Positions 2,104 to 39,652 of a stretch of DNA of 64,000 nucleotides are shown here, one piece after another (the first letter of the stretch is position 1; each line of letters opens with the position of its first letter). The DNA lies in contig NZ_CBDCBD010000002.1 of the NCBI RefSeq assembly GCF_965214215.1, forward strand, positions 365,873 through 429,872, in the 5' to 3' direction. A program made the position numbers and the translations under genes. The DNA is from Candidatus Poriferisodalis sp. GTDB lineage: Bacteria; Actinomycetota; Acidimicrobiia; Acidimicrobiales; Poriferisodalaceae. Below the pieces are notes generated by a model. The model did not search any database. It worked only from the letters and a program-made list of their open reading frames with translations, and had not been told where the DNA came from.

Positions 2104-2637
2104 CTACGACGTGGGAAGCGGGCAGGCGGCGGCCTGATACGTGCGCAGCCGCTTGCGCAGCGTCCACACGAGGAGCGCAAGGGCGGCCAGCCCCACGACG
2201 GGCTGCACTGGCGCCCACCACGACAGCGCCCCCGAGATTCCCACGAGCGCAACGACGGCTTGGTTGCACACCGGACAGCCCACGGCGAGGAACGACACGA
2301 ACCCGCCCCAGATGGTGGAGGTGCCCTGGCGTTCCACCGCCGCTTCGGTCACTGCGTCATTGCCCGCGGCTGGGCGGATCGCAAAGATCAAGCCGATGAA
2401 AGCCGACGTCACCACGAGGATCACGTAGTCGAGCCACCCCGTCTCGACAGGCCTGCCGAAGATCGGCGTGTCGATCACATCTGAGGGGACGCCGATCAAC
2501 ACAGCGGCAACGGCGCCGTACACCACGGCTCTCGGCCACACCGTACGAGGCAGCTCCCCCAGATCCCTCAGCACCAAAGCGACGCTACCCCGCCCCCTGA
2601 CCTGCCCATCCGCGCCCAACTCGGACGCGGTAGTCAC
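2104..2637 (-). CDS. Conserved membrane protein with GCPVCN motif
   Basis: 177-aa ORF with 4-5 hydrophobic helices and the motif FLAVGCPVCNQAVVALVG. The N-terminal RDLGELPRTVWPRAVVYG resembles a recurrent actinobacterial hypothetical family (recalled from memory). Its GTG start overlaps the mazF stop (GTGA at 2634-2637). Confidence 0.7.
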   Translation of the reverse strand: MTTASELGADGQVRGRGSVALVLRDLGELPRTVWPRAVVYGAVAAVLIGVPSDVIDTPIFGRPVETGWLDYVILVVTSAFIGLIFAIRPAAGNDAVTEAAVERQGTSTIWGGFVSFLAVGCPVCNQAVVALVGISGALSWWAPVQPVVGLAALALLVWTLRKRLRTYQAAACPLPTS

Positions 2638-2996
2638 CAGCGCCGCAGTGGGGAAGACAGGCCGAGGGCCAGCAAGAGGCCCTGTTCGATGCGTTCCATA
2701 GTGTCGGCATCGACGTCACCGATCGGCTCAGACAGCGCCGTCTTGTCGATAGTGGTCACTTGGGAGACGTTGACAACGGAGTCGTGAGCCAGACCCGACC
2801 CGTCGGCAGGTAATTCCACGTTGCCAGGTGCGGCAGCAAGCCGAAGATTGCTCGTGATGGCGACGCAAATGACGGTTGCGATTTGACTGCGATTGAAGTT
2901 GTCATCGGAGACGACGACCACCGGTCGAGAGAAACCGGGTTCGGACCCAAGGGGCTCACCGAGATCTGCCCAGCGAATGTCGCCGCGACGCATCAA
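2634..2996 (-). CDS. mazF: Type II toxin, MazF/PemK family endoribonuclease
   Basis: 120 aa. RGDIRWADLGEPLGSEPGFSRPVVVVSDDNFNR...VICVAITSN...SVVNVSQVTTIDKTAL matches the PemK/MazF fold consensus. There is a 4-nt ATGA overlap with the upstream antitoxin ORF. Confidence 0.9.
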   Translation of the reverse strand: MMRRGDIRWADLGEPLGSEPGFSRPVVVVSDDNFNRSQIATVICVAITSNLRLAAAPGNVELPADGSGLAHDSVVNVSQVTTIDKTALSEPIGDVDADTMERIEQGLLLALGLSSPLRRW

Positions 2997-3226
2997 GCAT
3001 CCCCCGACAATGCACGCGCCTGCAACGCGCGCAGCACTGGGTCAAGCTCGGAGGACTCTGCGCTGTACACATCGTTCAGCCGTTCGGTGATTTCGTCACG
3101 CTGAATGTCGGCCAGCAACAGTCTGAGCGCACGCGTGTACAGGCTCGAGCGTGAGCACTGCTCACGTGCAGCCAGCTCCTCAGCGGCTTGGAACACATCG
3201 TCCACAATGGAGACAGCGACCTTCAT
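2993..3226 (-). CDS. Ribbon-helix-helix (CopG-like) antitoxin
   Basis: Internal ATG (codon 50) of ORF 2993-3373: MKVAVSIVDDVFQAAEELAAREQCSRSSLYTRALRLLLADIQRDE... is a typical RHH N-terminal strand plus two helices. Its stop overlaps the mazF start. The upstream 49 codons of the track ORF are Cys/Arg-rich and look non-coding. Confidence 0.75.
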   Translation of the reverse strand: MKVAVSIVDDVFQAAEELAAREQCSRSSLYTRALRLLLADIQRDEITERLNDVYSAESSELDPVLRALQARALSGDA

Positions 3227-3232
3227 ACGCGG

Positions 3233-3260
3233 AGTATAACTCGGTAATACCATTCCTACG
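3233..3260 (-). promoter_or_regulatory. Putative promoter/operator of the antitoxin-toxin operon
   Basis: On the minus strand, TATACT (plus 3233-3238) lies 6 nt upstream of the antitoxin ATG, implying a leaderless or very short leader. A perfect 9-bp palindrome GGTATTACC (3243-3251) lies immediately upstream, where an autoregulating RHH antitoxin would be expected to bind. Confidence 0.4.
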
Positions 3261-3388
3261 TCCCTGGCCACAGGCAGTTGGCGCCGATGTTTCCGGTCAC
3301 GAGCACCCGACCAGATTCCGCTGCCATCGCACATCCCGCAGTCGTGCCTTGCGAGACTCGGGCACCGCGCCACACGGCTCGATCATGC

Positions 3389-3643
3389 TCAGCGTTCGAG
3401 TTCACGGATGGTCTCGAGCAGGGTTGCGGTGTCTCGCAGCCAGGTCACTACCCGGTCGATGCAATCTGGGCGGGTCACGTCGAGCAGCACTGTGGCGACT
3501 GCGACCGTGTCGCCGGCCTCATCATCGGCGACCATCGTGGTGGTCGGCCGCAGACGGGCATCGGACGCCACCAGCACCCCGGCCGCACGGAGTTGGCGTC
3601 GCTGGATCTCACCGCCGTCGTCATTCATGAGATCATCGTTCAT
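3389..3643 (-). CDS. Hypothetical small acidic protein (84 aa)
   Basis: ORF with strong third-position GC bias (coding-like). I recognise no family. It is immediately preceded by an AT-rich island. Confidence 0.5.
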   Translation of the reverse strand: MNDDLMNDDGGEIQRRQLRAAGVLVASDARLRPTTTMVADDEAGDTVAVATVLLDVTRPDCIDRVVTWLRDTATLLETIRELER

Positions 3644-3700: not shown

Positions 3701-3888
3701 GCTGGGGCGGATCGGCGCCGGTGACCGCTCCGACCTGCTCACGACTCGGCAGCAAACCTGACTTGGCGGCTTGCTTGCCCCAGACCAACACCGACTGCTT
3801 GGAACTCTTCGTCTAGGTCTGTGTGGGACCCGTAGAGTCTCGAACCAACCAAGCCGACGCCATCGACTCGTGGAGGGTGTTCGTTCCT

Positions 3889-4701
3889 ATGGCTGCTGAC
3901 AATCCGGCTGTCGACGACACCAACACCGGCTCGGTCGCGGTCGGGCATCGATTCGCTGACGCATTGCGGGAAGAGGGGCTCTCAGTCATCGCCGAGATCA
4001 AGCGGCGGTCGCCTTCGCGGGGGGCGTTGCGAGCCGATGCTGACGCGGCGGATCTCGCATCGGAGTACAAGTCGGGCGGGGCGGCGTGCCTGTCGGTGTT
4101 GACCGAGCGCGAGCGATTCGGCGGCTCGCCTGAAGACCTGCAGGCTGCGAAGGCGGTGACCGGTCTGCCCGTGCTTCGCAAGGACTTTCTGCGCACGCTC
4201 GACGACGTGCGCGACAGTCACGAGATGGGTGCCGATGCGATGCTCGTCATCCTGGCCGACATCGACCCGGCACGGCTGCCGCCCATGCAGGAACTGGCGC
4301 TGTCGCTCGGCGTGGATGTGCTGACCGAGGTCCGAGACGAAGCTGAGTTCGAGGCGGCCATCGACCTCGGCGCCTACATGATCGCGATCAACCAGCGTGA
4401 CAACCCCGAGTCGACCAAGTTCACCGTCGACTACGAAAAGGCGGTGCGGGTCAGCCGCTACTTCGACAGGTTCACCAGGATCGACCGAGAGATCTTGGTC
4501 GTGGCAGCTTCTGGCATCGGCGTCCAAGGCGGGACACCGATGAGCGCAATTGCCCAGGCCGGCTACGACGCCGCCCTAGTCGGGGAAGCTCTGGTAGTGG
4601 CAGACGACCCCCCGGCGCTCCTGAGGGAACTGCTCACCAATGCCGAGTGCGACCAGCCCACGCCCGCATCAACCGGGGGTGAGGGCGTCGGTCACGACTG
4701 A
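3889..4701 (+). CDS. trpC: Indole-3-glycerol phosphate synthase
   Basis: LSVIAEIKRRSPSRGALR, LSVLTE, PVLRKDF, MLVILADI, VLTEVRDEAE and IAINQRD are the TrpC (IGPS) barrel motifs. Start chosen at ATG 3889 (GGAGG 12 nt upstream); GTG 3823 is the longest alternative. Confidence 0.88.
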   Translation: MAADNPAVDDTNTGSVAVGHRFADALREEGLSVIAEIKRRSPSRGALRADADAADLASEYKSGGAACLSVLTERERFGGSPEDLQAAKAVTGLPVLRKDFLRTLDDVRDSHEMGADAMLVILADIDPARLPPMQELALSLGVDVLTEVRDEAEFEAAIDLGAYMIAINQRDNPESTKFTVDYEKAVRVSRYFDRFTRIDREILVVAASGIGVQGGTPMSAIAQAGYDAALVGEALVVADDPPALLRELLTNAECDQPTPASTGGEGVGHD

Positions 4702-5835
4702 AGCGGGAATTTCGCCACCGCCGGCTTGTTCGGTGCCGTCGGTGCGGATCAGCAGCCAGCGAGGCTGGTAGCTGACGCCATACCTCGTCCACAGATCGCC
4801 CTGCTCATCGGGCAGGTGCGGCATGTTGCCGACCCCGTAGGTGCTCACGAATCCGTTCATTGCGGACTGGGAGTCACGCCCGGGAATGCCGATGAGCACC
4901 AGGTTGTCTCCATGCTGTGTCTTCAGCGCTGCGACCGCAGGCGCTTCCCGCTGGCACGTCGGTCACCACGGCGCCCAGAACCACAGCAGCACATCCCTGC
5001 CGGCCAACGCGCCGACATCGAGGGTCGCTCCGTTCAGCTGGGGGACGGCCAGCGCCAGCACCCGGGGGCGATCTTCGGTCGGCTCGACTTGCGTGGCGGT
5101 GCCTTCTTCATCCTTGGTGGCTTCGTCGTCGCCGGACTCGTCATTCTCCTGGTCGGCTTCCTCTACTTGGCCACTCTCGCCGTCATCGCCTGATTCGCCG
5201 TCGTCGTCGTCGCTGTCGTCATCGTCGTCACCATCGCCCGATTCGTGGCCGTCGCCGGCATCGTCGTCGCTGTCGTCGTCGCTGTCGTCGTCCCGGCTTT
5301 CGTCCCCGCCACCCGACTGGCCCTCGCTGTCGCTGTCGTCGTCGCTGTCGTCGTCCCGGCTTTCGTCCCCGCGACCCGACTGGCCCTCGCTGTCGCTGTC
5401 GTCGTCGTCCCGACCTTCGTCCTTGCCGCCCGACTCGCTGTCGCTGTCGTCGCCGTCGTCACTGTCATCGCCGGATTCACGGTCGTCGCCACCATCGCCG
5501 TCGCGGCTCTCATCTACACCGTCGTCATCGTGATCGTCGGGGTGACGATCGTCCCCATCGACTTCGCCCAGCTCACGGTTGTCGACTGCACCGTCGCGGT
5601 TGTCGTCGTCACGATCGTCTTGCGAGCTACGAGCCGCATCGTTGGTCGTGGCATCCGTCGTCGGCATGATCGCGACGGTGGTTGTCGCCGCGTCCTGGAC
5701 CAGCGTCTGCGGCGTCTCGTCGCTGTCACTGCTGCAACTGGCCACAAGACCTGCACTGGCGAGACAGCAGGCGAAGAGCACCGTCGAACGCTGCAGGAAT
5801 CGGCCCACGGTGGCGAGCGTAATCCGCCTCGGCAT
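4669..5835 (-). CDS. Thioredoxin-fold (TlpA/ResA-like) lipoprotein with an in-frame TGA at the first active-site Cys: candidate selenoprotein (or pseudogene)
   Basis: Track ORFs 4963-5835 and 4669-4899 are in the same frame ((4965-4899) is divisible by 3). Reading through the TGA at 4963-4965 gives ...GRDVLLWFWAPW-[TGA]-PTCQREAPAVAALKTQHGDNLVLIGIPGRD...YGVSYQPRWLLIRTDG..., a complete redoxin domain with the stop at the WCxxC first-Cys position. The N-terminus has a signal peptide plus lipobox (LVASC), followed by a ~200-aa D/S/E/G-rich linker. Confidence 0.7.
4925..4945 (-). promoter_or_regulatory. SECIS-like hairpin downstream of the in-frame TGA
   Basis: Minus-strand RNA is UGA CCG ACG UGC CAG CGG GAA GCG CCU GCG GUC GCA GCG CUG. 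It folds as AGCG(C bulge)CUGC-[GGUC]-GCAGCGCU: 8 bp, one 5'-arm bulge 4 bp below a GGUC apical loop. The loop starts 30 nt after the U of UGA. Confidence 0.45.
5281..5406. repeat. Near-perfect 63-nt tandem duplication inside the acidic linker
   Basis: 5281-5343 and 5344-5406 differ at one base (gctgtcgtcgtcccggctttcgtccccgc[c/g]acccgactggccctcgctgtcgctgtcgtcgtc). A degenerate third unit follows. The unit encodes DDDSDSEGQSG[R/G]GDESRDDDSD. Confidence 0.85.
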
Positions 5836-5872
5836 GGACTTCGATGCCCCGACTGGCCATTAGCTTCACGCC

Positions 5873-6355
5873 GTGCCGCGTCTGTTCGTCGCTGTGTGGC
5901 CACCCGATTCTGTCGTGGAGGACTTGGCGCAACTGCCGCGACAAGCCGCACCAGGTGTCAGCTGGACGAAAGCCCGCCGGCTGCACATCACACTGCGATT
6001 CCTCGGCGAATGCGATCAGGACGAGGTCCTCAGCGCGCTGACGTCCGGCTCGTTTCCCAACGCTCGCGTGACGCTGGGCCCATCCCCGCAGCGACTCGGT
6101 CGAGACGTGCTCATGCTGCCCGCCGAAGGAGTCGACGAACTGGCGGCTTCCGTCGGCGAAGCCACGCGCTTCGTCGGCGATCCGCTCCCCGACCGTCCCT
6201 TCGTCGGCCACATGACGGTGGCCCGATTCCGTAGGCGGCAGCCGTCGGCGGACTGGCCGCAGCTGAACGACGCGTTCGACGTATCGCACATCAGCTTGGT
6301 GGAGTCAACACCGTGGGGCGAGTACGCCGACGTCGCGACGTTCCCGCTCCGCTAA
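5873..6355 (+). CDS. thpR: RNA 2',3'-cyclic phosphodiesterase (2H phosphoesterase, LigT/ThpR)
   Basis: 160 aa. RLFVAVWPP, and two HxT motifs (RLHITLRFLG and VGHMTVARF) at the expected spacing. Confidence 0.85.
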   Translation: MPRLFVAVWPPDSVVEDLAQLPRQAAPGVSWTKARRLHITLRFLGECDQDEVLSALTSGSFPNARVTLGPSPQRLGRDVLMLPAEGVDELAASVGEATRFVGDPLPDRPFVGHMTVARFRRRQPSADWPQLNDAFDVSHISLVESTPWGEYADVATFPLR

Positions 6356-23681: not shown

Positions 23682-23704
23682 CGCAGCAGTGCGCGGCTGC
23701 TGCG
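23682..23704 (+). promoter_or_regulatory. Stable hairpin in the long upstream region of the KamA-like gene
   Basis: CGCAGCAG-tgcgcgg-CTGCTGCG: 8-bp GC-rich stem, ~90 nt upstream of ATG 23794, inside a 248-nt divergent intergenic region. Confidence 0.3.
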
Positions 23705-23793
23705 GGCAACGCCCTTGCAATTTGCACCTACGTTTCCCTAGGGTGGCTTCAGAGAGTGGGATGCGAACCTGCCTGAAGCGAGCGAGCGAGGCG

Positions 23794-25368
23794 ATGATCA
23801 AGAGGAAATATCAGCCAACAGAACGAGAACAATTGGTACTTGACGAGGTCGAGAACCCCAGGTACGACCGTCAGATAGTTAATGGTCTCGAACCCTTCAT
23901 GAGTGGCTCCGCGCCTGAGGAATTCCGCAATTTCTATAGCAAGGAAGAGCTCAACAACTTAGGCAAATTACGCGGCACTGAACGCGATGTTGAAGCAAGG
24001 ATGCCCGTCAAGCTGACCCGCCACTACTTTGAAATGGCTACGTCAAGCTCAGCAATACAAAAGCTGGTAAAGGCTTCACCAGACGAAACGACAGATCTCG
24101 AAGGCGATCCGGACCCAGCGAACCAACTTGACTACAGCCCAATCGAGGGACTGCTGCACAAGTATGAAATGGCGCTGCTCTACGTTATTTCCACTTGCTC
24201 AGCTCATTGCAGATTCTGTTATCGCGAGGAACTGATCGGGCGCAAGGAGATTGAGCGCTCCGACGGCACAGTCAAGAAGAAAGGCCTCGCACAAGTTGGC
24301 GAGATCACTGAGTACATCCGGTCGCACAATGACGCCGTTGCGGCAAATGGGGGATCTCATCCCGAGACCGGCAGGCCGAAGCTGCGTGAGGTTCTCTTGT
24401 CAGGCGGCGACCCGATGGTGCTGCCGAACTCCAAGCTGGCAGCATGGTTCACGGCCTTGGCAGAGGCGGGCGCCGAAGCCATCCGCGTGGGCACCAAGGA
24501 GTTGGCCTTCTACCCGGACCGCTTCGACGAAGCCTTCTTTGCGATGATCGATCGCTTTCACGAGATCTATCCGGATGTTTCGCTGCGGTTCATGATCCAC
24601 TTCAACCATCCAGACGAATTCCTGCTGAAGGATCCCGACGGTCAGTACATTGCCGATGTCAAGGGGTTCCTTCAGTGGCGTCAGAACACCCGGCGAGCGG
24701 TCGACTCGCTGGTTGAACGCGGCTGGATCAGCGTCGAGAACCAGACTCCGATCATCGCAGGCGTCAACGACGACGCCGACGCATTGCGGATCCTCCAGCG
24801 CACGCTCAAGAGCGTCGGCGTCGAGAACCACTACTTCTTCTGCGGAAGGAACATCGTCGCCTACAAGGCGTTCAACGTGCCCATTGAGACCGCATGGCAG
24901 CTTCTCAACGACTCGCAGCGCGGGCTGTCGGGCGTGGAGTCGCACGCCCGTTTGACCATCGTGCACTACAAGGGCAAGACGGAGGTCTCGGCGGTGACCG
25001 ACGGGCCGATTGCCGGTCTGCGGGGTGCCGAGGACGGCGTGGTGATCTTCAAGGTCCTGCGCAATCCGGCCAGTGCCCCAGACCGAGGCAAAGTCACCAT
25101 CGTCGGCCGGAACCCCGAAGCACTGTGGTTCGACGAGTACGAGGACCGGGTGCTGTTAGATGAAGCCGGCCTGTTCTCTCAGCAGCGCCCCAGCGGCGTG
25201 ACGGTTCCGCGATCTCGCTCTCGGCACCGCGCAGCTCCAAAGGAACGGACACCGGGCTCATCACGGCCCGCTCCGCTCATGGCCGTGGTCGCGAGCAACG
25301 AGCGAAGGCCGCACCCAAAGAGCCTGCCCAGCAGTCCGGCGGCTGAGGTCCAAGACGCCCAGGCCTAA
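23794..25368 (+). CDS. KamA-family radical SAM aminomutase-like protein (divergent)
   Basis: Within ORF 23689-25368. Start at ATG 23794 (GAGG 4 nt upstream); ATG 23761 is the alternative. KamA-type motifs: PVKLTRHYFEM, SPIEGLLHKYEMALLYVISTCSAHCRFCYRE (CxxxCxxC), VLLSGGDPMVL, NQTPIIAGVNDD. Has a Pro/Arg/Ser-rich ~90-aa C-terminal tail. Confidence 0.8.
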   Translation: MIKRKYQPTEREQLVLDEVENPRYDRQIVNGLEPFMSGSAPEEFRNFYSKEELNNLGKLRGTERDVEARMPVKLTRHYFEMATSSSAIQKLVKASPDETTDLEGDPDPANQLDYSPIEGLLHKYEMALLYVISTCSAHCRFCYREELIGRKEIERSDGTVKKKGLAQVGEITEYIRSHNDAVAANGGSHPETGRPKLREVLLSGGDPMVLPNSKLAAWFTALAEAGAEAIRVGTKELAFYPDRFDEAFFAMIDRFHEIYPDVSLRFMIHFNHPDEFLLKDPDGQYIADVKGFLQWRQNTRRAVDSLVERGWISVENQTPIIAGVNDDADALRILQRTLKSVGVENHYFFCGRNIVAYKAFNVPIETAWQLLNDSQRGLSGVESHARLTIVHYKGKTEVSAVTDGPIAGLRGAEDGVVIFKVLRNPASAPDRGKVTIVGRNPEALWFDEYEDRVLLDEAGLFSQQRPSGVTVPRSRSRHRAAPKERTPGSSRPAPLMAVVASNERRPHPKSLPSSPAAEVQDAQA

Positions 25369-28300
25369 GAGGTCAAATCGGGAGTTGTGTCGACGGCCGG
25401 TGCTCGGGGCGTGTCGTAGGCGCCTGCTGCGGCGCGGTGACGGATACGCCAGATATCGGTCACGACCTTGAGCGACTGGGCGACCAGCCGGACAGTGGTG
25501 TCCGCTGAATGGTCGACGGCGACGGGCACCTCGACCGATGTCAGGTCGAGGTGCTCGACGAGGTACAGGACCTCCACGTCGAAGGTGAAGCCGTCGATGA
25601 CGGCACGGCTGAAGATTTCCTGGGCAGCCTCAGCGGTGAAGCCCTTGAAGCCACACTGCGTGTCGCGGTAGCGGCGGAGCAGCACGAGGCGGGTGAATGC
25701 GTTGAACATCCGGCTCGCGATCGCGCGAGCGGGCGCCGCCGGGCTGATGGTGCGCGCTTGCGCATGGCGCCGGTTCCCGAGCGCCACATCGGCCCCGCGG
25801 TCGAGTGCATCGACGAGCTCGGTGAGCTGGCCGGGCGGATAGGCCAGGTCCACGTCGGTGAACAGTCGCAAACGACCGCTCGCTGCGAGCATTCCCGTTC
25901 GCACCGCCGCGCCCTTGCCGCGATTCGCTTCCGACGACACCACGACGTCGGCCCCGGCTCGCCGAGCCGCCTCAGCTGTGCCGTCGGTCGAACCATCGTC
26001 GACGACGACAATCTCCATTCGGCCGTTCAGAGCCTCATTTCGACGTAGAGCGGCGCTGATCTCCGACACGGCGGTACCGACGAGATGCGCAGCTTGGTAG
26101 GCCGGCACAACGACCGACACCTCGGGCGGCGCGGGGCCCAACTCCGCTGCCGGTCGCTCGGGATCGAAGCCGCGCGCCGCGGGCGAGCGACCGAAACGGG
26201 CCGGCGGCCGCACGGCGACCAGCGCGAGAGCGACTGCTCCGAGCAGCGTTGCCAGCCAGGCGAGGTACTCGACCGCCGTGGCGCCATAGGTGAGCTTGAC
26301 GTGTTCGTCGGTGGGAAGCACCACCATCCAGTTGGGAGTCACCCGGTAGGGCCCGTCGGCGCCGCTCACCGACCAGTTCGGGAAGTATGAGACCTTCACC
26401 AGCACCGGCACCTCGGTCCGGTCCACCGAGAACGACAGCCAGTCCTGTCCCGACTCGAAATCGCCGATCTGCACCGGTGGCAGTGCACGCCGTGGTGCTG
26501 CGCTGAATCGAGTCAGTGAAGCGGGAGGCGCTGCGTGAGGATTCGGGGCCGACAGCAGCGACACCCGTGACCAGTGCTGCGGCCCCTCTGCCGCAATCGG
26601 CACATCCCATGCCGTGGGGTCGTTCCACCAAATCGCGGCTGGATCGGTCCATGCCCGTCCGGCCTGTGGCACATCGGGTGCGACTGCCGGCTCGAACCGC
26701 AGCGCCGACACCACATCGCTGTCTGCAACGAGGTAGATCGACCATGGCGCCGCCGAGGCAATGAGCTGCAAGTCTGCCGATTCGTCCGCCGCCGCAGTGG
26801 CCTCGGGGCTGAAGGCTGCGTAGTAACGCACGCCAGACATCTGCAGGTGAGGCACGCCCAGATCGAAATTCAAAGCGTTGTACGGGAGGCCACGCATCGG
26901 ACGTGACGGCGCTGCGGACAGCTCCGACTGCATCAGGAAATGGAACGGCACCGTGGGTGACGATTCGAAGTAGAGGCCCTCCATGGAGGCGATGCAGCCG
27001 TCCGTCCAGTTCGGCAGCAGCATCGGGGCCATCGGGGTGCCGTAGGCGCCCACGATGTCACGGTCGTATTCCCACAGCAGGCGCCCGCAGCCGTAGCCGG
27101 GCGTGGCGCCGACATCGCTCATCGCAGTGACGAACTCGTAGTACTCGGGATATGACGGGCGTCCCTCATAGCCGCGGAAGTTCCACCGCGCCCAGCCGCG
27201 GACGAAGTTGCGGTCGTCTGCGGACACCGTGAACGGGCCCCAACGAGTGTCCCCGCTTGCGTCCAGCCGGGTTCCGGGAAGGTCGCCGAATCGCAGTGCG
27301 AGCAGGCCTGCCCCAGCCCCCAGCGCGACAATCGGAGCCAGCACGCGCACCCAGCGCGCCGCGGCAGCGAGGTGGATCCCGTTGCCGTCAGACCTGTTGG
27401 AGTCTGCACGCGTCAGCCCGTCGATGATGAGCCACAGGCCCATCGCCGCCAGCACGTACACCGCCAAGTACCAGAAGGGCAGGATGCGCGCGTTCCACAG
27501 CCGGTGCTGCGGCCAGTGGATGAAACCCATGGCCATCGTGACAGCGATGGCCGACCACATCATCGCCGGGCGATACCAGCGCGCAAGGCCGACTGCGGCG
27601 CCGACACCTGCCAGCACGAGCAGCCAGGTGATGCTGTGGTGCGTCCCGTCGCCGCTGATCTCGTCGGTGAAGAACAGGTGCTCGCGCACGGACGCGAGCC
27701 GCTCCCAGCCCATGTCGTTGAGGTATGCCCGTCGGACGACGAACGGCACCGTCCAGAAGGCCGACAGCGCCCCGCCGATGCTGCCGATGACGAGCGCATG
27801 AGCAGACCGACGCCATTCCGTGGCCAGCAGCGCCGCGACCACGGCGACGGGCACAGCCAGCCGGGCCGACGGCGCCTCGGTGACATTCCAGACGGCCGCC
27901 CACAGCACGATCGCCACGACCGCCGCGCCCATCGCCGGCAGCCGGCCGATGCGGTCAGGCAGCGCGTGCAGGCCGCGCACGGCCACCATCAAGATGCTGG
28001 CCGTGACGGCGAACACCAGCGGGATGGGATGGCACAGGGCCACGAACGCCAGCAGCAGGCTCGCCCGCGCGCGCCCCGTCCCCCGCTCCAGCGAGCGCCA
28101 GAACATGCCGAGATACACGAGCGTCGCCGAGAGCGCGATCGAGAACGCGAATTCGCCTGCCAGCGTCGATGCTGCATTCCCGCCGTAGATCGTGAAATTC
28201 ACGTCCAAGACGAACAGCAGCAGCGCTGCAGGCAGCAGCGAGCGCAGCATGCGTGGCCAGCCCGCCAGCCGGCCCATCAGCCACGCCGCTGCGGGCATCG

Positions 28301-28658
28301 TGGCGACCCCGCTGATCGCCACCAGCTTGAACGCCACGTTGTAGGAGGGCAGCACCGCGTCGGCGACGACCACCAGCAGGTACGGCACCACCATGTAGAA
28401 ATGCCCCGTCGGCATGCCCGCATACCAGTCGCGCGACCAGCCGCGCAGCGAGCCCGACGGCAGTAGCTCGTCCCGCAGGAACGCCGGACCCCACACGTGA
28501 GCGCCCATGTCCCCACCAGTGGGCGTGGCTGTGGAAACCAACCCGCCGGGGTCGAGCCACACCACCACGGCCACACAGCTCGCCACGACGACCGCAGCTT
28601 CAAGCCACGCCCGCAGCACCGGCCCCGCGCGAGTGGGGCGCACGGTCACCGTCGGCAC
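25365..28658 (-). CDS. Fusion protein: N-terminal polytopic GT-C/YfhO-like membrane domain + extracytoplasmic domain + TM + C-terminal GT2 (polyprenyl-phosphate glycosyltransferase-like)
   Basis: 1097 aa. The N-terminal ~450 aa have many TM helices (GGDMGAHVWGPAFLRDELLP...). A soluble middle region is followed by a single TM (YLAWLATLLGAVALALVAV). The C-terminal domain carries VSVVVPAYQAA...IVVVDDGSTDGT...ANRGKGAAVRTG...FTDVDLAYP, typical of GT2 Dpg/GtrB-like enzymes. Confidence 0.85.
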   Translation of the reverse strand: MPTVTVRPTRAGPVLRAWLEAAVVVASCVAVVVWLDPGGLVSTATPTGGDMGAHVWGPAFLRDELLPSGSLRGWSRDWYAGMPTGHFYMVVPYLLVVVADAVLPSYNVAFKLVAISGVATMPAAAWLMGRLAGWPRMLRSLLPAALLLFVLDVNFTIYGGNAASTLAGEFAFSIALSATLVYLGMFWRSLERGTGRARASLLLAFVALCHPIPLVFAVTASILMVAVRGLHALPDRIGRLPAMGAAVVAIVLWAAVWNVTEAPSARLAVPVAVVAALLATEWRRSAHALVIGSIGGALSAFWTVPFVVRRAYLNDMGWERLASVREHLFFTDEISGDGTHHSITWLLVLAGVGAAVGLARWYRPAMMWSAIAVTMAMGFIHWPQHRLWNARILPFWYLAVYVLAAMGLWLIIDGLTRADSNRSDGNGIHLAAAARWVRVLAPIVALGAGAGLLALRFGDLPGTRLDASGDTRWGPFTVSADDRNFVRGWARWNFRGYEGRPSYPEYYEFVTAMSDVGATPGYGCGRLLWEYDRDIVGAYGTPMAPMLLPNWTDGCIASMEGLYFESSPTVPFHFLMQSELSAAPSRPMRGLPYNALNFDLGVPHLQMSGVRYYAAFSPEATAAADESADLQLIASAAPWSIYLVADSDVVSALRFEPAVAPDVPQAGRAWTDPAAIWWNDPTAWDVPIAAEGPQHWSRVSLLSAPNPHAAPPASLTRFSAAPRRALPPVQIGDFESGQDWLSFSVDRTEVPVLVKVSYFPNWSVSGADGPYRVTPNWMVVLPTDEHVKLTYGATAVEYLAWLATLLGAVALALVAVRPPARFGRSPAARGFDPERPAAELGPAPPEVSVVVPAYQAAHLVGTAVSEISAALRRNEALNGRMEIVVVDDGSTDGTAEAARRAGADVVVSSEANRGKGAAVRTGMLAASGRLRLFTDVDLAYPPGQLTELVDALDRGADVALGNRRHAQARTISPAAPARAIASRMFNAFTRLVLLRRYRDTQCGFKGFTAEAAQEIFSRAVIDGFTFDVEVLYLVEHLDLTSVEVPVAVDHSADTTVRLVAQSLKVVTDIWRIRHRAAAGAYDTPRAPAVDTTPDLTS

Positions 28659-31357: not shown

Positions 31358-33049
31358 TCACCACACCAGCGGGTGAGCCACGCTCAGCCCCTGAGTCCCG
31401 CTCCGTGCCTGCCACAGCAGCACTGCGAACGGCGTGTCGGAGACGAGCAGACGGGTCGTACCGCTCGCCAGCCGGTGCGTGACCACGCCCGATGCTGGCA
31501 CGTCGATGAAGGCGACGGTCTCGCGGCCCAGCGTTTCGACCACCACGCGGCGATCGCTGTTCGTCGAGACCGATGAATCATCGTCCTGCGAGCCATCCGC
31601 GTCGGCTGCCGCGAGTGGATCGGTCATGATCGTCAGCAGTGCCTCGCCTCCCGATTCGGGAGCGATGACCACGAGCCACCGGTCGCTGGTGCGAACGATG
31701 CCGGGCACGAACGCCAGACCCGACTGTGCTCGGTGCACCGGGGGCAGTATCTCGACTGGCGATTCGTCATCGCCTTCGTCGGATGCAGCGTCGCCCACCG
31801 GCGCGTCAGCACCCTGAGTACCGCCCGTTTGCGCAACCACCGTGGTGGACTCGCCGCCAGAATCGGGAACTTCGGTGTTCCCAGCGGCGGAGACGCTGGC
31901 GGATGCGGCACCGATGTCGGTCAGCGGGCTGGCAGCGCTGCCGACCAGTGTTTCGGCCCACACGACGATGGGAACGCCGTTCTGTGATTCGACAGCGATT
32001 CCGAAGGGGGCACCGGTCGGCGCAAGCAGTGTCGCGAGTCCGGGTGCAAGTTCGCCTGGAGGTTCGACCTGCAGCTCCATGACATCGTGTGATGCAACGG
32101 CAAACGCCACACGGTCGCTGCGAGAGTCGTGAGACGCGACCGACGCCGAGACTTCCGCAACGTCGTCAGAGGGATTGAAGACCCGTAACCACAGATGTGT
32201 CCGGTCATCGATGCCGGCCACGGGCACAAGCCACCGGTCGCCAGAGGCCACAGAGGCCAACTCCGCAGCCAGGCCGCGTCGCCCGACACTCCCGTCGTAG
32301 GCCAAGAACGAATCCACCGCGATGCGGCCGGTACGGGCACTGACTGATGCGGCCACGACGTCTCGGCGACGGGCATGCTCGCCGACATCGACGACAACCG
32401 TGCTCCACGCCGGCACCACCACACCGGTCAACGCGGGCGCCACGAACGGTCCGAACTCCGCTTCCGAAGCAAACGTGACGTCGACGATCGCATCGCGCGG
32501 CAGCGGATTCATGATTGCCAACACGCCCAACGCGTCGGCCTGGGTGTCGCCGACGGGGACAAACCAGTTCGGCGCCAGCGTGCTCGAACAGCGAGCCTCG
32601 TCGACCCCCAGCGGGGAGACCAGTCGCCGCGTCACGGCCAGCCCGCCCGAAGTGGCTTCCACCAAGGCCCCGATGACCTCGTCACGCACGTAATCCGAAG
32701 TGGTGACAACCCCGGTGCTGTGAGGTGCCACGTCTGCGGTCACAAACTGCCGGCCTGTCGTGCGACCACGGAATTCGACCGACACCGATGCCGTCTCGGC
32801 GGTCATGTTCGTCAGCAGTAGCTCTGAGGTGACCTCTCCAAAGCCCTGCACGGGTGCCCGCATGCCGACGACGGCGCAAAACCAGCTCGACGTCAACGCA
32901 TCGGGGGGCGGAACCACCACCTGCGTCAGCGCTTCGGGGTCTTCGACGACGGCTGACAGCGGCGTTCGGTCGTCGAGCGCGTCGATCACCAGCGCCGCCG
33001 CGATTGCCAGCGGGATCAGCAGCCGAGGAAGCCACCGCAAGATGTTCAT
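31358..33049 (-). CDS. Secreted/anchored hypothetical protein (resembles the DUF5719-type partner of large actinobacterial GT2 proteins)
   Basis: Internal ATG 33049 (MNILRWLPRLLIPLAIAAALVIDAL, signal/anchor) of ORF 31358-33130. The remainder is beta-rich and Ala/Val/Thr-rich. The family assignment is from memory of gene neighbourhoods only. Confidence 0.6.
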   Translation of the reverse strand: MNILRWLPRLLIPLAIAAALVIDALDDRTPLSAVVEDPEALTQVVVPPPDALTSSWFCAVVGMRAPVQGFGEVTSELLLTNMTAETASVSVEFRGRTTGRQFVTADVAPHSTGVVTTSDYVRDEVIGALVEATSGGLAVTRRLVSPLGVDEARCSSTLAPNWFVPVGDTQADALGVLAIMNPLPRDAIVDVTFASEAEFGPFVAPALTGVVVPAWSTVVVDVGEHARRRDVVAASVSARTGRIAVDSFLAYDGSVGRRGLAAELASVASGDRWLVPVAGIDDRTHLWLRVFNPSDDVAEVSASVASHDSRSDRVAFAVASHDVMELQVEPPGELAPGLATLLAPTGAPFGIAVESQNGVPIVVWAETLVGSAASPLTDIGAASASVSAAGNTEVPDSGGESTTVVAQTGGTQGADAPVGDAASDEGDDESPVEILPPVHRAQSGLAFVPGIVRTSDRWLVVIAPESGGEALLTIMTDPLAAADADGSQDDDSSVSTNSDRRVVVETLGRETVAFIDVPASGVVTHRLASGTTRLLVSDTPFAVLLWQARSGTQGLSVAHPLVW

Positions 33050-33062
33050 GGCCGCGCCGTCC

Positions 33063-36000
33063 TCATGAGTCGACCACGGTGCCGCCGGAACCGCTGCGCC
33101 GCCCAGACCCCTGCGCCGTCCTTCGCACAAGGGCAGAGAAGCGGTCTGCGAGCGGGGTGGGCTGGCCGATCGCCACCCAGATCAGCGCTAGCCAGATCAG
33201 CACCTGGGCGATGATCCGGGAGGCCGCGGCGCTCGATCGCTCGAAGTGCAATTCGGCCTGGCCGCCCTCGGGTGGGTCGAAGCGCATCGCCCAGCCGAGA
33301 GCCGGGGTCGGCTCAGTCCGCTCACCGGAGATCTCGAGGTGCCATCCCGGGTCGTAGGTCTCGGCAACCAGCACCGGGCCGATGCCCACCGGTCCAAGCT
33401 GACTTGTGACGGACCGGTAATCGGTGAACACGCCGATGCCGTCGGTCAAGTCGCTGACCACGAGGTCCACCGGGTCGGTGGCGAAGCCCGTCGGGATCGG
33501 CATTTCGAACTGTGACCGCGAGGACCACCAGGCCTCATTGCGAAACACCTGGACCGACGGATCTGCTGCCAGCGGGCGCAAATCGATCTGGGAAGCGAGC
33601 GCCTCGGACACCGCAGGCGGCACCGGCCGGTCCCAGCCGTCGGTATAGGAGGGCCCCGAGCGTTCCACCACCACGACATACCTGATGCCGAATGATCCCA
33701 GCAGCCGTCCCAGTCGCAGCGTGTCACCCGCCAGCCCGATCCGAACGGCGTCTGCCAAGCGTTCGCTGCCGAGCGTCTGCGGCGTCGCAAACGCATGCCG
33801 GACATCGGGATAGCCCCGCACTGACGTCGCAGCAGCGAGTCCGGAGACGCCGAGATCGGTACCACGCAGCGGCAAGACCTCCGGAGCGCCGAGCCACAGG
33901 ACCCGGTAGTCAGGTCCGACACCGCGGTCGTCGACGAGTCCCAGCGGCACTCGGTGGTCGAAGCTCGGTGCCGACCAGTTGCCGTCGATCGATGCCCACG
34001 CGGTCGGGAGCACCATGGCGCCCACAGCAATGCCGCTCAGCAAAACCATCGCGCTGCGCGTCCGGGGTGGTGCGTCGCCGCCGGCGGCGAGAGCTGCGGG
34101 ACCCGTCGCCGCTGTCCAGCACAGGCCGACGGCGCCGAACGCCAGCGATACCTCGGCAAGCGAGTGTCGCAGGCTCACACCGTCCGCCAGGGTGTCTGCC
34201 CAACCAGCCACGATGACCCATCCAAAGGCGAAACCGACCAGCGCCACCGCCCAGCCGTGGACCGACGACCACAACCGCCCGCCGCGCGCGACCAGCAGAG
34301 GTATCGCTGCGGCAGCTATCAGACCCCAACTGAGCGGCAATTCGCCGAGTGGGCCCGTCTGGAAACGCAGCAGCTCGGACAGCGATGACGGTGTCGACGG
34401 CGTGCGGCTGCCGAGCGACACATCGAGGTATTCCCGCAGCGAATCGAACTCGATCAGCCAGGGAAGGTGCGCAATTGCGGCGAGCGCCACCGCGACCAGG
34501 ACCTGCAGCAAGCCAGCGACCGGCGCACCGAGCCGCTCGCGGCGTACCGCGCGTCGCACCAACTCGACGACTGCGAGCCCCAGCCCCGCAGCCAACGCCA
34601 GCACCAGCATGAACGGCTCGAATGCTGCCGCCACCGCGAGGAGCAAGGCGAGCGACGCCACCCTGGCGACGGTGGCACGCCGGCTTCCGTCGCGTGGTTG
34701 CGGCGCTTGCGAAGCGCCGACCAGTCGGCTTGCGAGCAGCACGATCGCCGGCGCGGTTCCGTAGGCCAACAACACGTCCCAGCGGCCGCTGGCCAACGCG
34801 TTGTACGGCAGCGGGCACGCGGCGTACAGCACCAGAGCGACCAATCGGCCATTGCGGTTCGGTCCGTCTCGGGGTGACCGAGTGTCACAGAGCCTCCACA
34901 TGCCAATCAGGCCCGTGAGCACCAGACCCCAGATGGCAATGTTCCTCAACAGACCGACTGCGCCCAAGACAACGGTTCCACCGAGGCCCAGCAAGCCCAT
35001 CGCCGGATGACCGATCCCGGCTGCACCGACCCCGCTGTCGCGCCAGCCATCCAGGTACGCCCCGACCATCGTGCCGACATCGGCAAATGCCGTGAACTGG
35101 CCGTATGCGGGAATCCCGCCGGTCAGCAGGTGACGAGAACCGAACGTGATCAGGCCGATCACTCCCAGCCAGACCACCCACACCGTTCGATGCGCGTTGC
35201 GTCGCCAGGTGCCCAGGATGCTCTCATCGATCGTGGTCCGCGCGGCCAGTCCTCCTTCGGGACTCAGGCGGTAGCGGAACCAGTCGGCGACCCGTACCGA
35301 GCCGCCCTGTTGCAGTCGCCGCAGATCCACGTCTCGCACCCGCCGGTACCTCTTGGCGGCGCCTCGCAGCGCGAAGGTGCCCCCGATGTGCCGGGCGTTC
35401 CACAGCCACGCCAGCGCCACGTCGGAGGCCTGAGCGAACCGGCCACGTAGCGCCCCGAACAACACCTCGCCTGCGGCGAGTACGGCTGCGAGCGCCACCG
35501 CTGGCAGCAGGTGCACCCACCCGTAGCACTTCGAGATGGTACGCAGCCGGGCCCGGTGCTCGTGCTGACGTGCCGAGGGCCCATGGCGTTGGACGGTCGG
35601 ACCGGTCCGCAGGGTCCCGGTAGCAGACGGCACGATCCGGACCCGTGCGCCCGAGAGCTGGATGCGCCAGCACAGATCGACCACGGCGCCGTCGCCTTCG
35701 AGCGCCGGATCGAATCCGCCGACGATGCGGAAGATGTCTTCGCGCACGAGCATCGCCTCGGTGGGCGCCACAAACAGGTCACGGGCCTCGTTGTGCTGTT
35801 GCTGATCCAGCTCGTCGAGGCCGGCAACCGGAATCCGGACTCCAAGGCGATCCGCGGTGCCACCGAGATCGCGCAGCGTCAAGCCGTCCTCGGCGTCGAG
35901 CAGCTTGGGGCCGGCGACGCCGACAATCCGTCCCGGGACGTTCTCGGCATCTTCGATGAGCAGACTGACGGCGTCGTGCGCGAGCGCGACGCGACCGGAA

Positions 36001-36353
36001 AGGAAAAGGAGGTAGTCCGCTCCGCGGACCAGCGAAGCTCCCCGATTGTTGACAGCGCCCATGCGCCCGCGTTGGGCTCGGCGACCGCGACCTGTCCGAG
36101 ACGACACCGAATCGGCGATTGCGGCGGTGGGATACAGCTCTCGGACCCGTTCGCGCTGAACACCGTCTGCGTCGCACAGCACCAGAACGGCGAGCCGCGG
36201 GTAGTCCTGAGCGGCCAATGCCCGCAAAGTGAATTCGGTGTCGGACCACTTCGACCCCGCCGTGACGATTGCAGCGACCGCCGGCTGGGGTGCGGGGGCC
36301 ACCGGCTCGGTCGCAGCGGGTGCTGTTGCCTCTTGCGAGGTCGGCGAGCTCAT
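33063..36353 (-). CDS. Fusion protein: N-terminal GT2 glycosyltransferase + large C-terminal polytopic membrane/extracytoplasmic domain
   Basis: 1096 aa. GT2 part: AAIVTAGSKWSDTEFTLRALAAQDYPRLAVLVLCDADG...FVAPTEAMLVREDIFRIVGGFDP. It is followed by about 14 or more TM helices and a C-terminal soluble domain plus a final TM. Confidence 0.85.
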   Translation of the reverse strand: MSSPTSQEATAPAATEPVAPAPQPAVAAIVTAGSKWSDTEFTLRALAAQDYPRLAVLVLCDADGVQRERVRELYPTAAIADSVSSRTGRGRRAQRGRMGAVNNRGASLVRGADYLLFLSGRVALAHDAVSLLIEDAENVPGRIVGVAGPKLLDAEDGLTLRDLGGTADRLGVRIPVAGLDELDQQQHNEARDLFVAPTEAMLVREDIFRIVGGFDPALEGDGAVVDLCWRIQLSGARVRIVPSATGTLRTGPTVQRHGPSARQHEHRARLRTISKCYGWVHLLPAVALAAVLAAGEVLFGALRGRFAQASDVALAWLWNARHIGGTFALRGAAKRYRRVRDVDLRRLQQGGSVRVADWFRYRLSPEGGLAARTTIDESILGTWRRNAHRTVWVVWLGVIGLITFGSRHLLTGGIPAYGQFTAFADVGTMVGAYLDGWRDSGVGAAGIGHPAMGLLGLGGTVVLGAVGLLRNIAIWGLVLTGLIGMWRLCDTRSPRDGPNRNGRLVALVLYAACPLPYNALASGRWDVLLAYGTAPAIVLLASRLVGASQAPQPRDGSRRATVARVASLALLLAVAAAFEPFMLVLALAAGLGLAVVELVRRAVRRERLGAPVAGLLQVLVAVALAAIAHLPWLIEFDSLREYLDVSLGSRTPSTPSSLSELLRFQTGPLGELPLSWGLIAAAAIPLLVARGGRLWSSVHGWAVALVGFAFGWVIVAGWADTLADGVSLRHSLAEVSLAFGAVGLCWTAATGPAALAAGGDAPPRTRSAMVLLSGIAVGAMVLPTAWASIDGNWSAPSFDHRVPLGLVDDRGVGPDYRVLWLGAPEVLPLRGTDLGVSGLAAATSVRGYPDVRHAFATPQTLGSERLADAVRIGLAGDTLRLGRLLGSFGIRYVVVVERSGPSYTDGWDRPVPPAVSEALASQIDLRPLAADPSVQVFRNEAWWSSRSQFEMPIPTGFATDPVDLVVSDLTDGIGVFTDYRSVTSQLGPVGIGPVLVAETYDPGWHLEISGERTEPTPALGWAMRFDPPEGGQAELHFERSSAAASRIIAQVLIWLALIWVAIGQPTPLADRFSALVRRTAQGSGRRSGSGGTVVDS

Positions 36354-39300: not shown

Positions 39301-39652
39301 AGCCGCGCGCCGCGTCGGACAGCTCGTTCGGTGTCGTCAACAGGATCGGCGCGTTGAGCACTCTCGCCAGCGGGACAGCTGCCAACCCGTCCGCGAACCC
39401 GAGCCCGCCCACCACGATCACTGCGTCGAGTGGGCCCGCTTCGCTCTCGTAGGCCTCGGCAATCTCAGCTGCGGTGGCATATCGATCAGGCCCCCAAAGG
39501 CGTTCGGACGTCGTGGCGGCAGCATCCCCCCCCACGGGAGCGATCAGCACGAGCATCGTGCTGATCAGCAGCACTGTCAACGAGCCGGCGCCAAGACGCA
39601 GACTGGACAAGCGCCGAGGCGCGCAACGCCCCCGACGACCGCAAAGAGCCAC
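36380..39652 (-). CDS. Secreted multidomain protein: 3x cell-wall-binding repeat 2 (CWB2) + SpoIID/LytB-like domain + C-terminal ~40-aa repeats
   Basis: 1090 aa with a signal peptide. Three CWB2 units ([14 protein letters not shown]...[22 protein letters not shown]...[11 protein letters not shown], and two more). SpoIID motifs [40 protein letters not shown]. About six C-terminal repeats GYWL(V/L)xxxGxVxxxGDAxHHGD. Confidence 0.85.

Follow-up and report, generated by a model that had tools for sequence, protein, structure and literature searches.

We have analysed a 64,000-nucleotide stretch of DNA from Candidatus Poriferisodalis sp. (contig NZ_CBDCBD010000002.1, positions 365,873 to 429,872 of the forward strand; hereafter the window, with coordinates counted from its first letter). 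A redoxin gene on its minus strand, at 4669..5835, is on the sequence evidence a genuine selenoprotein gene with a probability of about 0.88. It is predicted to encode an exported, lipid-anchored oxidoreductase of the TlpA/ResA/DsbE type in which an in-frame UGA codon is read as selenocysteine (Sec). The gene and its relatives show the features by which selenoprotein genes are recognised: a conserved UGA, homologues with an aligned Cys, a downstream domain that is intact and under selection, and a hairpin of the selenocysteine insertion sequence (SECIS) type whose stem covaries in sister clades.

A single reading frame with TGA at the catalytic cysteine codon

Read from 5835 to 4669, the gene is a single frame that opens with ATG and runs through 290 codons, a TGA, 97 sense codons and a terminal TGA (4669-4671). 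Counting the first TGA as Sec, it has 388 codons (290 + Sec + 97), and orthologous frames read in the same manner. The list of open reading frames (ORFs) gives two pieces instead, 4963..5835 (290 amino acids, aa) and 4669..4899 (76 aa, from an internal GTG). A first-pass annotation of the window had proposed that these are one minus-strand frame split by a single TGA at 4963-4965, and our translation bears this out; the sequence around the TGA, ...DVLLWFWAPW-TGA-PTCQREAPAVAAL..., is exactly as it was given there. The downstream domain was also correctly described as in frame and intact, while its length is 97 sense codons plus the stop and not 98 codons. The TGA, which is predicted to encode Sec at residue 291 and recurs at this codon in some 95 genomes, falls on the first Cys codon of a WCxxC redoxin motif. 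The result is a predicted U-P-T-C redox motif (4954..4965, minus strand), Sec291...Cys294, where U stands for Sec. That the TGA occupies the position of the nucleophilic Cys is confirmed by the Cys homologues, which read WAPWCPxC and include M. tuberculosis DsbF (WAPWCPTC); the latter reads LWFWAPWCPTCQGEAP, with Cys opposite the TGA. Coding character on both sides of the TGA, claimed in the first pass for the downstream side, is equally evident: in a scan of the whole window, which has a G+C content of 66.7%, this gene was the only place in all 64 kb where two segments with the GC signature of a coding frame are joined through one TGA.

Conservation of the TGA in two phyla

Over the region that they share, the window and the Acidimicrobiales metagenome-assembled genome (MAG) OZ220472.1 are 93% identical. 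The window's identity is 91% to a Candidatus Poriferisodalis sp. chromosome and about 76-82% to most of the other members examined from the sponge-associated clade. The full-length relatives returned by a protein search were all Cys forms (WAPWCPxC; P0001-P0006, P0010-P0013 and P0016) at identities of 50% or less. No Cys form above 50% identity was found in that search, and the closer relatives were all TGA forms. Relatives at 53-84% identity came back only as fragments, namely C-terminal pieces of 77-82 aa and one N-terminal piece ending in ...FWAPW. The contigs behind these fragments are syntenic with the window (LigT-like gene, redoxin gene, trpC) and all have TGA at the identical codon; the TGA is seen there in six distinct syntenic orthologues from metagenome assemblies. 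The alignment of homologues at this column, which had been suggested as a check, thus shows Cys or TGA.

With the pattern TGGGCNCCNTGGTGACCNNNNTGYCA (WAPW-TGA-PxCQ) we scanned a single genome for each GTDB species and obtained 99 hits, 4 of them chance matches; the remaining 95 read WAPW-U-PxCQ. An intact thioredoxin-fold remainder of 96-103 codons follows the TGA in 91 of the 95, and of the other four, two are short deltaproteobacterial thioredoxins and two are loci that end before the end of the domain. In the relatives with an intact remainder, no extra stop or frameshift was found in the 96-103 codons 3' of the TGA; the additional disabling mutations named in the first pass as a sign of decay are not carried by close relatives. 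Adding eight assembly loci and the window to the 91 scan loci gives a family set of 100 sequences, with 27 from the Poriferisodalis clade (18 from the scan), 38 from other Acidimicrobiia and 35 from Dehalococcoidia/SAR202; three deltaproteobacterial thioredoxins fall outside these groups. The TGA-bearing orthologues span two phyla, and protein identity between clades goes down to about 35-40%. The presence of the same TGA in some 95 independent assemblies rules out both an error of sequencing or assembly and a nonsense mutation confined to one lineage. The assemblies have TGA, not a misread TGC or TGT, and the argument that a TGA at precisely this codon is no accident is upheld.

A few members of the family have features of their own. 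Two distant Sec-redoxin paralogues of different subtypes occur on each of two Dehalococcoidia chromosomes (L009 and L096, both on CBDBDS010000002.1; L068 and L098, both on OZ220731.1). One Acidimicrobiia MAG (isolate jk18x11bins.54) has two slightly different copies on two contigs (L027 and L074), which could represent strain heterogeneity or a duplicate. L104 (CAXMRH010000211.1) is binned as 'Chthoniobacterales', but its copy of the gene is of the typical Acidimicrobiales type, which points to possible mis-binning of the contig.

Selection on the downstream part and a SECIS-like hairpin

Selection was estimated from an ungapped alignment of 22 distinct sequences of the Poriferisodalis clade. 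In the 96 codons 3' of the TGA the median ratio of nonsynonymous to synonymous divergence (dN/dS) is 0.35, with dS of about 0.63 (about 0.72 without the hairpin codons); in the 35 codons 5' of the TGA the ratio is 0.18. These estimates are conservative because the alignment is ungapped. A downstream dN/dS of about 0.35 points to a part after the TGA that is translated and functional.

The transcript can form a SECIS-like hairpin, AGCGC-C-UGC[GGUC]GCA-GCGCU, at 4925..4945 (minus strand), with 5 base pairs (bp), a bulged C, 3 bp and a GGUC tetraloop (4933-4936). It starts 17 nucleotides (nt) past the UGA, the loop lies 26 nt past it, and the folding free energy (dG) is -10.5 kcal/mol. All four features that PMC13188914 lists for bacterial SECIS elements are present, with a 4-nt loop opening with GG, a stem of 8 bp, a spacing of 26 nt and the dG of -10.5. 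Codons +7 to +12 (GCG CCT GCG GTC GCA GCG), which are all four-fold degenerate, do not vary among the 22 sequences, whereas at comparable codons outside the hairpin 25-68% of pairs show a difference. Overall, the synonymous-difference fraction is 0.075 within the hairpin, compared with 0.309 elsewhere. Just two hairpin positions are variable and pairing is kept at both (A-U to G-U and G-C to G-U).

The sister Acidimicrobiia have the same GGUC loop on covarying stems, for example GCCGGUGC/GCAUCGGU, GCCAGUGC/GCACUGGU and GCCGACGC/GCGUCGGU. Here 90.4% of the stem cells are paired, against 26-48% in slid controls, compensatory double changes are seen at three pairs, and the covariation score was reached by none of 500 shuffles. 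The hairpin of the Dehalococcoidia is different, CAGCGGG[AGUUG]CCCGCUG, 16 nt past the UGA; it is 88% paired and shows GC-to-AU compensation in six sequences.

A small subgroup of Acidimicrobiia (L047, L066, L090, L093 and L103; columns 27-45 of alignment A1) keeps the CGGUC pentamer in what appears by eye to be another fold, GGAGGCC[AGUUC]GGUCUCC, in which GGUC joins the 3' arm and the loop resembles the AGUUG of Dehalococcoidia. By the same visual inspection, this fold may represent a register shift between SECIS types.

UGA as a stop codon and the machinery for selenocysteine

TGA terminates 19 of the 23 domain-verified genes in the window, and RF2 is encoded there (487.7 bits against a cut-off of 370). 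We therefore reject a global reassignment of UGA; recoding in the redoxin gene must be local and signal-dependent. Sec use is documented in related lineages. All 84 complete genomes of Actinomarina (Actinomarinales, class Acidimicrobiia) are reported to carry selA, selB, selC and selD (bioRxiv 10.64898/2026.04.03.716425), and Dehalococcoidia MAGs of the same isolate-naming series have 46-49 selenoprotein genes in BSepDB, which ranks them among the most selenoprotein-rich bacteria (PMC13326102). At six Dehalococcoidia/SAR202 loci the Sec-redoxin gene is adjoined upstream by a DUF3179 gene that has TGA at the first Cys of CPLC, and DUF3179 is an accepted and already listed selenoprotein family (PMC13188914). 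Together, the Actinomarinales sel genes, the Dehalococcoidia selenoproteins and the DUF3179 neighbours give indirect support for the use of Sec.

The DUF3179 loci are L017 (TGA 4413, plus strand), L023, L025, L096, L098 and L099 (TGA 4542, plus strand), with a Pfam E-value of 1.6e-97. The gene reads VVITF-U-PLCNTAF, shares the strand of the Sec-redoxin gene and precedes it by about 1.1-1.2 kb; its UGA is followed by a hairpin that is conserved, CCGCCU[UCGUGUAC]AGGCGG.

Several results weigh against the insertion of Sec in this gene. Neither the 64-kb window nor 107 related loci yielded selA, selB, selD or tRNA-Sec, and a second selenoprotein gene was sought without success in the window and the loci of the Poriferisodalis clade. 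Single-sequence folding is unexceptional in this GC-rich context (z = -0.27), and the invariance of the hairpin in the window's own clade means that support there comes from conservation and not from covariation. Stem columns 34/47 are mispaired in 14 of 26 sister-clade sequences. An Rfam scan of the window gave no family match; the Rfam SECIS models are reported to be poor at representing bacterial elements.

The searches behind these negatives were of several kinds. A tRNA scan of the window found no tRNA genes, and ARAGORN recovered tRNA-Sec in 26 of 120 control sel clusters, so the tRNA-Sec negative is real for the window and related loci. Pfam annotation of 20 large window ORFs revealed no sel genes. 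With E. coli SelA as the query, a protein search became saturated with Enterobacteria and gave nothing informative on the Poriferisodalis clade. When metagenomes were scanned with the SelA pyridoxal phosphate motif, back-translated for high GC, 120 genuine sel clusters were detected, none of Poriferisodalis composition (tetranucleotide r of 0.95 or less, against 0.97-0.99 for true relatives); L151, the best lead, proved to be from Solirubrobacterales and was ruled out. A search for other genes with a TGA followed by a hairpin gave no convincing candidate, and a literature search on Poriferisodalis found no papers. An all-against-all Sec/Cys scan of TGA read-through ORFs produced mostly off-frame artefacts, and a coding-frame filter left only the DUF3179 family of Dehalococcoidia, with no candidate from the Poriferisodalis clade.

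A tblastn search with SelA, SelB and SelD of E. coli, run on the window and the 107 loci, gave a single match, in L069, which comes from an Acidimicrobiales MAG. The matching protein, of about 393 aa (2410..3591, plus strand), is encoded about 600 nt from the Sec-redoxin gene. It is a divergent paralogue of EF-Tu and not SelB, because it is without the C-terminal extension.

Alternative explanations

The gene might be a decaying pseudogene in which a nonsense mutation has by chance struck the catalytic Cys codon, leaving the downstream part untranslated. The splitting of the gene by gene callers, the return of no full-length product entry by the protein search, and the failure to find Sec machinery in the window or related loci are all compatible with this. 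Set against them are the identical TGA codon in about 95 genomes of two phyla with no stops or frameshifts downstream, a downstream dN/dS of about 0.35 where a value of about 1 would be expected, and a synonymous freeze over the hairpin that a dead gene would not keep, and we regard decay as highly improbable. A sequencing or assembly error that conceals a true TGC or TGT has a negligible chance of being correct, since assemblies made independently from short and from long reads, and covering many samples and species, show the same TGA.

Two further explanations accept the UGA as real in a living gene and assign it another fate. In one of them, UGA undergoes programmed read-through with Cys, Trp or Gly, delivered by a suppressor or near-cognate tRNA, and the hairpin merely slows termination. 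Stimulation of read-through by the hairpin is possible in principle, C follows the UGA, and sel genes were not found in the searched sequence of this clade. Yet the residue concerned is the nucleophilic Cys of CxxC, whose chemistry is kept by Cys or Sec alone, and we know of no dedicated UGA-to-Cys system. The hairpin also fits the SelB-binding SECIS consensus and the architecture of the fdhF element, including the GGUC loop and the 5' bulge, and the related lineages are documented Sec users; read-through of this kind is very unlikely. The same slim odds attach to the proposal that ribosomes mainly terminate at the UGA, making the 290-aa acidic lipoprotein the product and the 76-97 downstream codons a separate small protein or one that is rarely made. 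Recoding of UGA by Sec is indeed incomplete, at 30-40% in E. coli (PMC4513850), and gene callers place an internal GTG or TTG start that gives a 76-82-aa fragment. However, the truncated product would stop within strand beta1/helix alpha1 of the thioredoxin fold, without the catalytic centre, while the 35 codons 5' of the TGA, which belong to that fold, show strong purifying selection (dN/dS 0.18). The internal start is not conserved, being GTG in the window and TTG in L001, and the C-terminal fragment alone would have neither the CxxC centre nor a signal peptide.

Architecture of the predicted protein

The gene, read through as a selenoprotein, has several recognisable parts, all given here on the minus strand. 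Residues 1-33 (5737..5835) are a signal peptide, conserved across clades, with a positively charged n-region (RR, R12, R16) and a hydrophobic core. Behind these the lipobox V31-A32-S33-C34 (5734..5745) conforms to the pattern [LVI][ASTVI][GAS]C, and the mature protein is predicted to begin with a lipidated Cys34 (5734-5736). Of the 100 family members, 83 have a hydrophobic segment followed by a lipobox, with all three clades represented, which suggests that the family consists of exported lipoproteins. Next comes a polyacidic low-complexity linker (5065..5733) of 223 aa, with 44% Asp plus Glu (D+E) and 6% Lys plus Arg (K+R). The first-pass annotation was right in describing a lipoprotein with a lipobox and a polyacidic linker of about 200 aa; the extracytoplasmic Sec site that it inferred is not unusual, since such sites are known in periplasmic FdnG/FdoG and in predicted DsbA-, DsbG- and TlpA-like selenoproteins (general knowledge and PMC13188914).

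Comparison of the 100 family sequences shows that the long polyacidic linker is restricted to the Poriferisodalis clade, where it measures 170-260 aa with 25-60% D+E and no more than 7% K+R; in the other clades the linkers are 7-129 aa long with 6-28% D+E, bar one 10-aa outlier. The window's linker contains an in-frame tandem duplication (5266..5407) of 63 nt (21 codons) in 2.3 copies that are 98% identical. Wide variation in linker length and composition among close relatives (170-260 aa) suggests rapid expansion and contraction.

The thioredoxin-fold redoxin domain, residues 263-368 (4732..5049), extends across the TGA. It scores above the Pfam gathering cut-offs for AhpC-TSA (PF00578; 37 against 26 bits), Redoxin (PF08534; 35.2 against 26.6) and Thioredoxin_8 (34 against 27). 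Its best sequence matches in the PDB are M. tuberculosis DsbF (3ios, E 2.4e-23) and DsbE/MPT53 (1lu4, E 8.9e-23), both extending over about 110-118 residues, followed by B. subtilis ResA. A candidate cis-Pro is the Pro of 'SYQPRW', which aligns opposite 'TQQPAY' of DsbF. The NCBIfam equivalogs all remain below cut-off, with 39.5 against 170 bits for ResA (NF002854), 31 against 230 for TlpA (NF047696) and 29.2 against 123 for DsbE (TIGR00385). By sequence, the redoxin is a predicted functional counterpart of the ResA/TlpA/DsbE proteins but lies outside those named equivalogs.

The anatomy of the gene suggests how the protein would be made. The hairpin 26 nt past UGA-291 would bind SelB-GTP-Sec-tRNASec, which would outcompete RF2 and allow Sec to be inserted. 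Judging from the conserved lipobox, the signal peptide would direct export of the full-length pre-protein, which would be lipidated at Cys34 and anchored at the membrane's outer face; in the Poriferisodalis clade the redoxin domain may be kept off the membrane by a polyanionic, disordered spacer of about 220 aa. By homology, the U-P-T-C centre would alternate between selenol/thiol and selenenylsulfide states and would reduce, isomerise or oxidise disulfides of envelope proteins. Were selenium or the Sec machinery limiting, translation would stop at the UGA, and the product would be an acidic lipoprotein of 290 aa that lacks the catalytic centre.

Comparison with known systems

Redoxins with a UxxC motif are, as the first-pass annotation stated, a recognised class of selenoprotein. 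Prokaryotic selenoproteome surveys have catalogued them since 2004-2008, and their lists include the 'Prx-like thiol:disulfide oxidoreductase' (PF00578) and 'Redoxin family protein' (PF08534) families together with 'Prx-like 1', 'Prx-like 3' and 'Trx-like 1' of the GOS marine metagenome, for which 225, 68 and 321 sequences are counted, respectively; marine metagenomes are rich in such proteins. The catalogued proteins (representatives WP_010940744.1 and HEU0032618.1) resemble the family described here in their Pfam domains, in UxxC with Sec first, in a bSECIS-type hairpin and in their marine distribution; the likeness is one of domain, motif and description. The long polyacidic linker of the Poriferisodalis clade, in contrast, is absent from the passages searched. 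UxxC redoxins with these Pfam domains have long been catalogued, so the redoxin gene is not novel in kind.

The closest likeness of the predicted redoxin is to mycobacterial DsbF (Rv1677, 3ios) and DsbE/MPT53 (Rv2878c, 1lu4). These are likewise actinobacterial extracytoplasmic redoxins and share the active-site context LWFWAPW[C/U]PTCQxEAP, but they have Cys in place of Sec and no acidic linker. DsbF is annotated as a lipoprotein, and both mycobacterial proteins reportedly behave as oxidases (Goulding 2004, Chim 2010).

The E. coli fdhF SECIS (from NC_000913.3) is likewise a hairpin inside the coding region downstream of the UGA, with a GGUC tetraloop, a 3-bp apical stem and one unpaired 5' base directly below. 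It differs in that its bulged base is U and not C, its lower stem has 3 bp (in the 17-nt minimal fdhF hairpin) and not 5, and its loop lies 18 nt past the UGA and not 26.

NF041054, the NCBIfam model for a WAxxUGC ResA-like selenoprotein, describes a protein that likewise has a TlpA/ResA-like fold and carries Sec after a WA motif in the region of the active site. The redoxin is not a member, for it scores 19.6 bits against a cut-off of 300 and its motif is U-P-T-C, not U-G-C. The Sec thioredoxins of Geobacter/Deltaproteobacteria (L062, L079 and L085) read EFWAPW-U-PHCQ and are matched by the same DNA pattern, but have a short classical remainder, with 75-77 residues after Sec (L062 and L085), and different hairpins.

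Genomic neighbourhood

The redoxin gene lies between a divergent gene for a LigT-like 2',5' RNA ligase/phosphoesterase (5873..6355, plus strand), and a convergent trpC gene for indole-3-glycerol-phosphate synthase (3823..4701, plus strand), whose 3' end overlaps that of the redoxin gene by 33 nt (4669..4701). Both are markers of conserved synteny, and the LigT-like protein is not a functional partner. These neighbours, together with dienelactone hydrolase and acyl-CoA dehydrogenase genes, give no functional hint. No genes for CcdA/DsbD or for cytochrome maturation were found adjacent to the redoxin gene in the window or at the syntenic loci, and no terminator-like site was found in 4400..6100.

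Elsewhere in the window, two ORFs of 559 and 590 aa (23689..25368, plus strand, and 31358..33130, minus strand) have no Pfam match, and three very large ORFs of about 1,090-1,100 aa lie on the minus strand (25365..28658, 33063..36353 and 36380..39652).

Implications

The immediate consequence is a correction of annotation: what appears as two ORFs or a pseudogene becomes one selenoprotein gene, and across Acidimicrobiia and Dehalococcoidia the gene is likewise mis-called in some 95 species-level genomes. Because no NCBIfam model reached its cut-off in our scan, a curated model for the family could be worthwhile. Its three hairpin types, with their covariation, offer a defined set of SECIS elements on which selenoprotein predictors could be trained for high-GC Actinomycetota and Chloroflexota.

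The redoxin changes nothing in the known mechanism of selenoprotein synthesis. Sec redoxins of this kind were already known, and the part that is specific to the Poriferisodalis clade is the long polyacidic linker. It is conceivable, though in our judgement unlikely, that the protein of this clade represents a distinct selenoprotein subfamily, unrecognised by any of the NCBIfam models scanned: a surface-tethered Sec enzyme on a fast-evolving polyanionic spacer of 170-260 aa that would hold the selenol centre beyond the envelope, with the supply of selenium switching production between a truncated lipoprotein and the full enzyme. If so, the enzyme could act on disulfides or oxidants derived from the host or the environment and perhaps bind cations. 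The broader conclusion is a firmer one: sponge-associated Acidimicrobiia very probably use Sec in an exported redox enzyme of the cell envelope that is related to mycobacterial DsbE/DsbF.

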